From: Shigella virus Moo19
Strand: one strand, 5' to 3'
Sequence record: MZ358387
Length of the DNA stretch: 64,000 nt
The translations under genes were made by a program, and so were the position numbers. A model generated the notes under the pieces. It had not been told where the DNA came from, ran no database searches, and saw only the letters and a program-made list of their open reading frames with translations. Numbering within the stretch: position 1 is the stretch's first letter; each line of letters begins with the position of its first letter. Below are positions 10,734 through 37,884 of this stretch, one piece after another.

Positions 10734-10754
10734 GCTGATAGTTTTGTTTGGCTA

Positions 10755-10784
10755 AAGCCCTCCTTGTGAGGGCTTTCTTGTATC
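10755..10784 (+). terminator. Terminator-like hairpin (aaagccctc-cttgt-gagggcttt)
   Basis: Read directly; T tract weak. Confidence 0.5.
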
Positions 10785-10799
10785 TATAGGAGAGTAAAA

Positions 10800-11114
10800 G
10801 TGACTAACAAATTACGTGTATGGCATATCCCGCAAGTGCCAATGAAAGCATTCTTTGTAGAATGCGATAGCATTCAGGAAGCTGTTAAAATTCGTAGTGC
10901 ACTGGCAGATTACGACTTGTTCCAGTATGAGAACAATGTCAAAGGTGATTACTGTAACGCCAGCGGTATTCATATCTGGGATGAAACTCTGTCTGACCAA
11001 GACCTCATCGATATGGAACTAGACGACCGTTGGGTTGACTGGTTCTATGAAGATGAAAATGAATACTTCGATGACCCAGAAGAATATCTGGAATGGCTTG
11101 CTACGCAATCCTGA
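10800..11114 (+). CDS. Small acidic protein (C-terminal half D/E/W/Y-rich); candidate DNA-mimic-type host-interference protein
   Basis: ORF track (GTG start with aggag RBS); composition; bracketed by terminators. Confidence 0.45.
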   Translation: MTNKLRVWHIPQVPMKAFFVECDSIQEAVKIRSALADYDLFQYENNVKGDYCNASGIHIWDETLSDQDLIDMELDDRWVDWFYEDENEYFDDPEEYLEWLATQS

Positions 11115-11161
11115 TTGCTTTTTTGGGTTGAGCAAACCCGTAACATTCCTTTGATATCCTT

Positions 11162-11190
11162 GACCTCCCTAAATGGGAGGTCTTTTTTTG
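11162..11190 (+). terminator. Rho-independent terminator (gacctccc-taaat-gggaggtc + T7)
   Basis: Read directly. Confidence 0.75.
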
Positions 11191-11216
11191 GTTGTTATCT
11201 ACTTTGGAAAATAAAT

Positions 11217-11417
11217 ATGAAATTTTCTGATTTACTCTGGGCAATTCTATTCCTGTTACTTACTGCCTTTATTTATGGGGTAGTACTGCCTAATGCAGTA
11301 TCTGCTTCAGATAGTATAAGTGTAGTAATTGGATTGATTGTTTCTATTATGTGGCCTGTTATAGCAGGTCGTGTTGTTTACCTTATCGTTAAGAAACGGA
11401 AGAAGAAACATGCGTAA
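11217..11417 (+). CDS. Small membrane protein (66 aa, two hydrophobic segments, basic C-terminus)
   Basis: ORF track frame 11115-11417; ATG 11217. Confidence 0.4.
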   Translation: MKFSDLLWAILFLLLTAFIYGVVLPNAVSASDSISVVIGLIVSIMWPVIAGRVVYLIVKKRKKKHA

Positions 11418-12246
11418 ATTTATTATAGGTTGTTTACTGGCAATAGTTGCAATGGCTAGTCTTACTGGTTGTTATCAACGAGTAGAGCCAGGTAATGTAG
11501 GTATTATCGTTAACCGTTTGGGTGACGATAAGGGCGTTGACCAACAAGTAAAAGGCGTAGGCCGTTACTGGATTGGTTGGAATGAAGACCTGTATACGTT
11601 CCCGACATTCAAACAGATGAAAACCTACGACGATAAGTTTTACTTCCAACTGTCGGACGGTACTCAAATTGGCCATCAACTGGCTATCAGCTATAAGGTC
11701 AACCCGACCAAAGTAGCGACCATCTTCCAGACCTACCGTAAAGGTGTCGATGAAATCACTGACCAGGATTTACGTCAGCGTATTGCCGATATCCTGAACC
11801 GTCAGGGTAACCTGATTAACACTGACAAGTTCATTGACGGTGGTAAGTCACGTTTGCTGGATAGTGTAGCTGATGCAGTTAAAAAAGAGATGGAGCCAGT
11901 CGGTATCGACATTATGGCTATCTCCTGGGTAGGTGCACCGGAATACCCGGACAACGTGAAGCGTGCAATTAACGCGAAAGTTGAAGCTACCCAGAAAACC
12001 CTGCAACGTGAGCAAGAAGTGCAACAGCGTATCGCTGAAGCAAATATGGCTCGTGAGCAAGCCAAAGGTGAAGCTGATGCCGTAGTACTGAAAGCAAAAG
12101 CAGAAGCTGATGCTATTAAGCTGCGTGGTGATGCACTTCGTGAAAACCCTGGTGTAATGGAACTGGAAGCAATCAACAAGTGGAATGGTGTATTACCAAC
12201 CACAATGATTCCAGGTGCAGCCACACCATTTGTGCCTGTTAAATAA
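11410..12246 (+). CDS. SPFH/band-7 (prohibitin/HflC-like) lipoprotein
   Basis: Lipobox LTGC after signal peptide; SPFH-like core and C-terminal coiled-coil; ATG 11410 with ggaag RBS. Confidence 0.65.
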   Translation: MRKFIIGCLLAIVAMASLTGCYQRVEPGNVGIIVNRLGDDKGVDQQVKGVGRYWIGWNEDLYTFPTFKQMKTYDDKFYFQLSDGTQIGHQLAISYKVNPTKVATIFQTYRKGVDEITDQDLRQRIADILNRQGNLINTDKFIDGGKSRLLDSVADAVKKEMEPVGIDIMAISWVGAPEYPDNVKRAINAKVEATQKTLQREQEVQQRIAEANMAREQAKGEADAVVLKAKAEADAIKLRGDALRENPGVMELEAINKWNGVLPTTMIPGAATPFVPVK

Positions 12247-12282: not shown

Positions 12283-12295
12283 TCTGGAAAGTGTA

Positions 12296-12646
12296 ATGGA
12301 AAAGAACCGCAGGAAGACACTCATTGAGCGTCTGCTTGCCCGTATCAAGATAATGGATATGGGCTATACCGTTAATGGTCAGCCAAGCCTATGCCACATC
12401 TGGACTGGTTCCCACTCTGGGAATGGTCGAGGTGGTCAATATGGCAGGATTTCCGTGAATGGAGTTACCTCTGCTACACATATTGTGGCCTATACCCACT
12501 ATCACGGTTACATCCCTTGCAAAATGCAGGTAGACCATCTCTGTAATAACCGTCTGTGCTGTAACCCGGAACATCTCGAACTGGTGACTCACCAAGAGAA
12601 CCAGAGAAGAAGAGCTGCACGCCAAACTAAAGGTAAAAAGAAATGA
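12296..12646 (+). CDS. HNH homing endonuclease (HNH_3 type)
   Basis: Motifs CHIWTGS...GYI...VDHLCNNRLCCNPEHL...HQEN; ATG 12296 downstream of terminator. Confidence 0.7.
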   Translation: MEKNRRKTLIERLLARIKIMDMGYTVNGQPSLCHIWTGSHSGNGRGGQYGRISVNGVTSATHIVAYTHYHGYIPCKMQVDHLCNNRLCCNPEHLELVTHQENQRRRAARQTKGKKK

Positions 12647-37484: not shown

Positions 37485-37566
37485 GGGGGAGTAGTCAAGC
37501 GGTCGAAGACGGCAGACTGTAAATCTGTTATCCCACACGGTAGTTCGAATCTACCCTCCCCCACCA
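37485..37566 (+). tRNA. tRNA-Tyr (anticodon GTA), 10-nt variable region, CCA encoded
   Basis: Hand-folded cloverleaf: acceptor GGGGGAG/CTCCCCC, T-loop TTCGAAT, anticodon loop CTGTAAA. Confidence 0.65.
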
Positions 37567-37567
37567 C

Positions 37568-37642
37568 GGTAAGTTAGCTAATTGGTGAAGCGGCTGACTG
37601 TTAATCAGTGATAGAGTGGTTCGAGTCCACTACTTACCGCCA
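37568..37642 (+). tRNA. tRNA-Asn (anticodon GTT), CCA encoded
   Basis: Hand-folded: acceptor GGTAAGT/ACTTACC, T-loop TTCGAGT, anticodon loop CTGTTAA. Confidence 0.7.
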
Positions 37643-37647
37643 CATTA

Positions 37648-37724
37648 CGGAGTTTAGCTCAGTCTGGTAGAGCATCTGCTTTGGGAGCAGAGGGTCGTAG
37701 GTTCGAGTCCTGCAATTCCGACCA
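37648..37724 (+). tRNA. tRNA-Pro (anticodon TGG), CCA encoded
   Basis: Hand-folded: acceptor CGGAGTT/AATTCCG, D-arm GCTCAGTCTGGTAGAGC, anticodon TGG. Confidence 0.7.
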
Positions 37725-37730
37725 AACAAT

Positions 37731-37806
37731 TAGGGGTTAGTTCAGTTGGTAGAACATCGGACTTTGATTCCGAATGTCACAGGTTCGAATCCTGTACCCC
37801 TTGCCA
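37731..37806 (+). tRNA. tRNA-Gln (anticodon TTG), CCA encoded; position 1-72 is T-T (unpaired)
   Basis: Hand-folded: D-arm GTTCAGTTGGTAGAAC, anticodon loop CTTTGAT, T-loop TTCGAAT. Confidence 0.6.
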
Positions 37807-37808
37807 AA

Positions 37809-37884
37809 TGCTTCATAGCTTAGTAGGTAGAGCACACCCCTGATAAGGGTGAGGTCATTGGTTCAAATCCAATAACGGACGCCC
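37809..37884 (+). pseudogene. tRNA-Ile(GAT)-like element with non-complementary acceptor stem (possible pseudo-tRNA)
   Basis: D-arm, anticodon arm (CACCC-CTGATAA-GGGTG) and T-arm are canonical, but 5' TGCTTCA cannot pair with 3' AACGGAC. Confidence 0.4.

Follow-up and report, generated by a model that had tools for sequence, protein, structure and literature searches.

A P22 gene 17-like protein of the N4-like Shigella virus Moo19 as a candidate counter-defence factor

Gene 17 of the Salmonella phage P22 is the founder of a family of small phage proteins that the databases call superinfection exclusion proteins. In the curated P22 record (BK000583) its product is listed as "unknown", with the note "allows growth on phage Fels2 lysogen"; according to two papers, Gp17 acts against a superinfection-exclusion system of Fels-2 (PMC6486243; PMC9409062). 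The recorded phenotype is thus growth on a Fels-2 lysogen, i.e., escape from exclusion, and the founder of the family is therefore a counter-defence gene and not a defence gene; the label "superinfection exclusion protein" is misleading, since it states the opposite of the recorded phenotype. Here we describe a member of this family in a stretch of 64,000 nucleotides from Shigella virus Moo19 (record MZ358387; this whole stretch is referred to below as the window). The gene in question occupies positions 10800-11114 on the + strand, starts with GTG and encodes a P22 gene 17-like protein (PF17420 / PHROG 1510) of 104 amino acids, which we consider probably to be a counter-defence protein of the gene 17 type that acts by binding a defence protein.

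In the P22-like phages, the gene is part of the early-left P(L) operon, where it is found among ral and abc1/abc2 (anti-RecBCD) and adjoins c3, kil and erf; it is two or three genes away from ral (restriction alleviation) and from a gene for a pentapeptide-repeat protein. Record BK000583 also annotates a terminator 3' of P22 gene 17. Our literature searches found no published mechanism for gp17, and the EVADES catalogue paper on anti-defence proteins makes no mention of the PF17420 family.

The window gene is a new member of this known family, for which Pfam and PHROGs already have a name and which has been annotated in the closest relatives. The protein matches Pfam PF17420 ("GP17, superinfection exclusion gene product 17") with an E-value of 2.9e-46 and 156.1 bits against a cut-off of 25, over positions 1-96 of the 98 in the model, and PHROG 1510 with an E-value of 5e-49. 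The Pfam scan at E≤1 returned no other family, and neither NCBIfam nor, at E≤0.01, the PADLOC defence models gave a match. Comparison with P22 records, including X15637 (the original P(L)-operon record) and BK000583, gave 62.4% identity to the gene 17 product over 101 of the 104 residues (E 1e-36 to 6e-37), and on these sequence grounds the window gene is an orthologue of P22 gene 17. Like the P22 product, the window protein has the same length, contains all family-invariant residues and is acidic (the P22-type protein P0054 carries a net charge of -15); in both cases an intrinsic terminator lies 3' of the gene, which is placed among early accessory genes. Unlike P22 gene 17, which belongs to the P(L) operon of temperate P22-like Salmonella phages, the window copy comes from a lytic N4-like E. 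coli podovirus, where it follows RNA polymerase II and decoration genes.

Homologues were found in 324 phage records, which comprise P22-like phages, N4-like coliphages, the Bacillus phage SP-10 (a spounavirus), a mycobacteriophage and Ackermannviridae, the latter infecting Salmonella, Klebsiella, Serratia, Erwinia and Pectobacterium. A profile search of 1.84 billion cluster representatives recovered 1,176 clusters (50% identity) at E≤0.001. Strictly lytic phages of several families are among the carriers, and in the large lytic phages the gene lies within arrays of small genes that match no family; the neighbourhoods in six further contigs revealed no partner gene. The homologues of the Gamaleyavirus phages PGN829.1, U1G, AN24P2, St11Ph5 and IME11 share 73-85% protein identity with the window copy; for the latter, no sequence found exceeds 87% identity. 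Some N4-like phages encode a longer version of 154-159 residues at the same locus (P0012, P0019, P0026 and P0028; positions 3501-3965 of L011, a 72.8-kb metagenomic N4-like contig). This version carries an N-terminal extension that includes a conserved Walker-A-like motif (GxxxxGK[ST]); at about 50 residues, the extension is too short to form a complete NTPase domain.

The GTG start codon of the window gene aligns with an ATG in PGN829.1, its closest relative, and the family shows no variation in residues 4-14, which precede the internal Met15; the reading of 104 amino acids is therefore correct. The RefSeq entry for the PGN829.1 protein (gp20, YP_010659693.1; locus L001, 4135-4413) starts at the internal Met and comprises 92 amino acids; because of the conserved N-terminus and the aligned ATG, this call is too short, and the true length is 104 amino acids. 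A ribosome-binding site, AGGAGAG (10788-10794, + strand), could be read from the sequence 5 nt upstream of the GTG; its GGAGA core is invariant in all four aligned relatives, three of which retain the complete heptamer. The protein is divided into a conserved core (approximately residues 4-60) and an acidic, aromatic-rich C-terminal part (residues 61-104). The protein of 104 residues with an acidic and aromatic C-terminal half, as the original prediction described it, is thus real: in the peptide then singled out (residues 66-100; nt 10995-11099), 16 of the 35 residues are acidic and 8 are aromatic. The whole protein has a pI of 4.05 and a net charge of -18, nearly all of which is due to residues 61-104 (-17); residues 1-60 are nearly neutral (-1). 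Among the window ORFs of at least 80 amino acids, it is the most acidic one (-0.17 charge per residue, vs -0.11 for the next). No transmembrane segment or signal peptide was detected in it (the maximum Kyte-Doolittle mean over 19 residues is 0.58), so that from its sequence it is predicted to be small, soluble, very acidic and cytoplasmic.

These properties bear on the literal meaning of the family name, according to which the protein would be a genuine superinfection-exclusion protein that blocks the entry or growth of a second phage. The product names in GenBank/RefSeq, PHROGs and Pfam all say so, but the name derives from P22 gene 17, and the phenotype on record for that gene is the reverse, escape from exclusion. 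Moreover, the window protein is without signal peptide or membrane segment, unlike entry-blocking proteins such as SieA of P22, which has been described as an inner-membrane protein (PMC7380047); it matched no PADLOC defence model, and its family is carried by strictly lytic phages as well. We therefore regard this reading as very improbable.

The question of what gp17 counteracts leads to Fels-2 itself (NC_010463). Two genes, STM2723.1 and STM2726, separate its portal gene from its replication genes; in P2-like phages, anti-phage cargo genes such as old and tin occupy this position. The product of STM2723.1 (L003, 22639-24336), 565 residues in length, matches the AbiU model of PADLOC (E 2.7e-112), the Pfam family AIPR (E 9e-43) and a PHROG termed "Abi alpha-like"; RefSeq labels it a 'hypothetical protein', and it is a full-length homologue of the AbiU/AIPR abortive-infection proteins. 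The STM2726 product (243 residues) matches only a PHROG family of unknown function, with no match in Pfam, PADLOC or NCBIfam. When 15 non-structural Fels-2 proteins were scanned with PADLOC, the only defence matches were AbiU and an orphan Dam-like methylase, so that, of the Fels-2 genes scanned, abiU alone could be recognised as a stand-alone defence gene. The presence in Fels-2 of an abiU "of unknown function" has been mentioned before (PMC3853940). Since Fels-2 has such a gene in its cargo region, AbiU/AIPR proteins are a candidate target class, and the target in Fels-2 may be AbiU, a protein of the AIPR family.

The conserved features of the family were examined on a predicted structure. 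An AlphaFold2 model built with 48 aligned homologues gave a compact alpha/beta fold (pLDDT 92, pTM 0.81); a model from the single sequence (pLDDT 48) was discarded. The predicted core consists of two strands (residues 5-10 and 18-22), a long helix (25-44) and a further strand (54-60), and is followed in the C-terminal part by a short helix (66-71), short strands and a helix (93-103). No solved structure resembling the model was found, neither of a DNA mimic nor of an enzyme, and neither sequence nor profile searches against the PDB yielded a credible match. Conservation was measured on 150 diverse cluster representatives, at least 90% of which retain V7, P11, Q12, P14, F18, L35, Y38, D39, F41, Q42, K48, D50, Y51, N53, G56 and W78. 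All 16 of these family-invariant residues are present in the window protein, whose sole departure is C22 (V in 92% of the family), and all except W78 fall within the neutral N-terminal core. The strand-strand-helix-strand order should place the loop joining the first two strands (beta1-beta2), the C-terminus of the long helix and the loop after this helix at one end of the molecule, which suggests a single conserved site. The acidity itself is a family-wide property (median net charge -12, with a pI above 6 in only 6 of the 150 representatives), and yet fewer than 50% of the family clusters contain residues 65-75 of the acidic stretch; judged by the alignment, part of this stretch is a lineage-specific insertion.

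A conserved site rich in polar residues might instead belong to a ligand-binding protein or an enzyme, e.g., a sponge for an immune signal, a modifier of a host component, or a host-takeover factor unrelated to defence. Eight of the residues (Q12, Y38, D39, Q42, K48, D50, Y51 and N53) are retained in at least 93% of the 150 representatives and are near-invariant across the 1,176 clusters, with hosts as distant as enterobacteria, Bacillus and Mycolicibacterium, a degree of conservation that would be unusual for a pure protein-protein inhibitor. The size of the protein resembles that of known nucleotide sponges, and the 50-residue Walker-A-like segment fused to it in some N4-like phages points in the same direction. 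On the other hand, the core contains no cofactor- or nucleotide-binding motif, and AbiU is not known to use a signalling molecule. We consider a ligand-binding or enzymatic role unlikely, yet it is the strongest competitor of binding to a defence protein.

The acidic part raises another alternative, the one that the original prediction had put forward, whereby the protein is a DNA mimic: its acidic surface would imitate the phosphate backbone and titrate defence proteins that bind DNA, type I restriction enzymes among them. Ocr (gp0.3 of T7) and ArdA are small, strongly acidic, cytoplasmic proteins of phages or plasmids that are made early, and a small alpha/beta architecture is known from several DNA mimics (Ugi, AcrIIA4, Arn). 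The window protein is like Ocr and ArdA in being small, strongly acidic and devoid of a membrane segment; a net charge of -18 on 104 residues, the highest acidity in the window, makes for a high density of carboxylates, and acidity is preserved across the family. The neighbourhood of ral and the pentapeptide-repeat gene in the P22-like phages would also be in keeping with an anti-restriction function. The model, moreover, is not an enzyme fold; a conventional fold of that kind, which had been named beforehand as evidence against mimicry, is not what the prediction at pLDDT 92 produced. Unlike Ocr and ArdA, however, the window protein is conserved in its neutral core and not on its acidic surface: few of the invariant residues are acidic, the segment that contains them has a net charge of -1, and residues 65-75 of the acidic stretch are absent from most clusters. 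It shares no sequence or structural similarity with Ocr, ArdA or any solved DNA mimic. The sole known phenotype is tied to a prophage, not to a restriction system, and the only match of restriction-modification type among the 15 non-structural Fels-2 proteins is the orphan methylase, which is without a partner nuclease. Mimicry of DNA is improbable, though less so than exclusion proper. What has held from the original prediction is its counter-defence direction, which fits the genetics of the family, because BK000583 and the two papers place the founder against Fels-2 exclusion; Ocr/ArdA-like mimicry and anti-restriction activity are unsupported, because there is no similarity to these proteins, the conserved site lies outside the acidic part, and the phenotype concerns a prophage.

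We therefore return to a counter-defence protein that binds a defence protein, which would operate as follows. By analogy with P22 gene 17 in Fels-2 lysogens, on which its role is modelled, the window protein would let the phage multiply in cells that harbour a prophage- or host-encoded exclusion or abortive-infection function, and would itself exclude no other phages. Most likely, it would bind the defence protein stoichiometrically and so neutralise it, or else mask whatever that protein senses. The binding surface would be the one conserved patch, formed by the beta1-beta2 loop (P11, Q12, P14), the C-terminal end of the long helix (Y38, D39, F41, Q42) and the next loop (K48, D50, Y51, N53), to which the acidic C-terminal part may add electrostatic affinity. 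We infer the direct binding, the single patch and AbiU as the target from the combined evidence given above, and the same role for the window copy as for P22 gene 17 would likewise follow from their relationship.

Several points weigh against this interpretation. The strongly conserved polar residues would equally suit a ligand-binding or catalytic site, and the patch is single by virtue of its topology, as deduced from the order of the elements in the predicted model. The phenotype is recorded for P22 only; it reportedly goes back to Semerjian, Malloy and Poteete in 1989, and reaches the present analysis through an annotation note and secondary citations of that work. No paper linking gp17 to AbiU was found in our literature searches, and STM2726 or a gene outside the cargo region could be the excluding function of Fels-2. 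In addition, the Fels-2 allele of abiU occurs in only 7 of 5,426 complete E. coli genomes, in a nucleotide search that would miss distant AIPR genes. As the Fels-2 allele is rare in E. coli, the targets of the window protein, if they are AbiU at all, would be more distant AIPR proteins.

The one published protein that counters AbiU, Surt, comes from Vibrio phages (bioRxiv 10.1101/2024.06.14.598830). It would be like the window protein in this respect if the proposed target is the true one, and is unlike it in length (195 amino acids) and in its unrelated sequence. The membership of Surt in the PF17420 family was considered and rejected (hhalign probability 0.4%). A broader proposal, which we advance only tentatively and with rather low expectation, is that PF17420 as a whole (at least 1,176 clusters at 50% identity) constitutes a very widespread family of inhibitors of AbiU/AIPR-type proteins with an unsolved fold, which could serve as an acidic decoy for the nucleic acid or phage component that these proteins sense.

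The matter has some practical consequences. The label "superinfection exclusion protein", opposite to the recorded phenotype, is now found in hundreds of phage records, and the family that bears it is large, occurs in at least five unrelated phage groups and has a confidently predicted fold without a solved relative. If the family does inhibit AbiU/AIPR proteins, this would provide a first mechanistic handle on AbiU and would explain a P22 phenotype published in 1989. Since Fels-2 carries an AbiU/AIPR gene among its cargo, the target question lends itself to simple plating tests. In phage therapy, a phage with this gene may be able to kill a broader set of lysogenic strains, as has been suggested (PMC9409062).

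The gene is bracketed by hairpins. The upstream one, AAAGCCCTC-CTTGT-GAGGGCTTT (10754-10776, + strand), has a stem of 9 bp, is terminator-like with a weak T tail, and starts 21 nt past the stop codon of the gene for a Hoc-like decoration protein. The folding energy of the 51-nt stretch around it (10745-10795) is unremarkable (-15.6 kcal/mol, z -1.4 vs shuffles). Shortly 3' of the stop codon of the gene 17-like gene, there is a small hairpin, GGGTT-GAGCA-AACCC (11125-11139, + strand), whose stem is preserved and whose loop varies in three relatives. It is followed by an intrinsic terminator on the + strand (11162-11189), which consists of the hairpin GACCTCCC-TAAAT-GGGAGGTC (11162-11182) and a run of seven T residues; the 46-nt stretch 11150-11195 has a folding energy of -16.6 kcal/mol (z -4.0 vs shuffles). 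Both flanking hairpins are present in PGN829.1, St11Ph5 and L011, with divergent loops. The upstream stem of L011 is altered in both arms with its pairing preserved, and the downstream terminator combines an invariant stem with a variable loop in the relatives. Terminator-like sites are frequent in the region (11 found, vs 3.2 ± 1.7 expected). The bracketing by hairpins, noted in the original prediction, is thus upheld and is conserved in relatives, whereas the accompanying claim of a single-gene unit is not: an autonomous transcription unit is doubtful, because the 23 nt from the upstream hairpin to the start codon contain no promoter-like site. The gene is probably read through from upstream and is not an independent unit.

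As to its genomic setting, the window encodes both subunits of an N4-type RNA polymerase II, and on the opposite strand an ORF of 3,493 residues, a size matching that of the N4 virion RNA polymerase; it derives from an N4-like coliphage related to Gamaleyavirus, with about 85% nucleotide identity to Gamaleyavirus phages of E. coli in this region. The gene 17-like gene belongs to the early/middle arm of the phage and is found just past the RNA polymerase II genes, and the gene order (RNA polymerase II large subunit, Hoc-like decoration protein, gene 17-like gene) is common to the window, PGN829.1 and St11Ph5. The window copy is thus like the Gamaleyavirus copies in its locus, in its 73-85% identity to them and in both flanking hairpins, and unlike them in what lies past the terminator, where the window has a small membrane protein and a lipoprotein and the relatives have small hypothetical genes. 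Because the nucleotide similarity to Gamaleyavirus stops exactly past the T run of the terminator (window 11183-11195), the terminator marks a mosaic (recombination) boundary. Within the gene itself, the last 120 nt or so are nearly identical to PGN829.1 (four differences), as opposed to a far more diverged 5' half (10980-11114 vs 10800-10979), a pattern that suggests a recombination junction inside the gene.

The membrane protein beyond this boundary (11217-11417; 66 residues) belongs to PHROG 1130, and the lipoprotein (11410-12246; 278 residues) contains an SPFH/Band 7 domain (Pfam E 1e-22). The pair is positioned between the gene 17-like gene and an HNH gene, and is not found at this locus in PGN829.1, St11Ph5 or contig L011. 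In phage Vi01 (Ackermannviridae), an analogous small membrane protein and SPFH lipoprotein are encoded two genes 3' of its own copy of gene 17. A general functional link between gene 17-like genes and such a pair was rejected, as other Ackermannviridae and the closest N4-like relatives are without it. The pair could itself be a genuine superinfection-exclusion or envelope-modifying module. The HNH gene just downstream (12293-12646; 117 amino acids) is homing-endonuclease-like, and its counterpart in L011 sits directly 3' of the gene 17-like gene of that contig.

Elsewhere in the window, four tRNA genes (Tyr, Asn, Pro and Gln) are clustered at 37485-37873. A fifth, tRNA-like match at 37816-37873 scores 50 bits with Rfam over model positions 8-63 and receives no ARAGORN call; it may represent a truncated or unusual tRNA.
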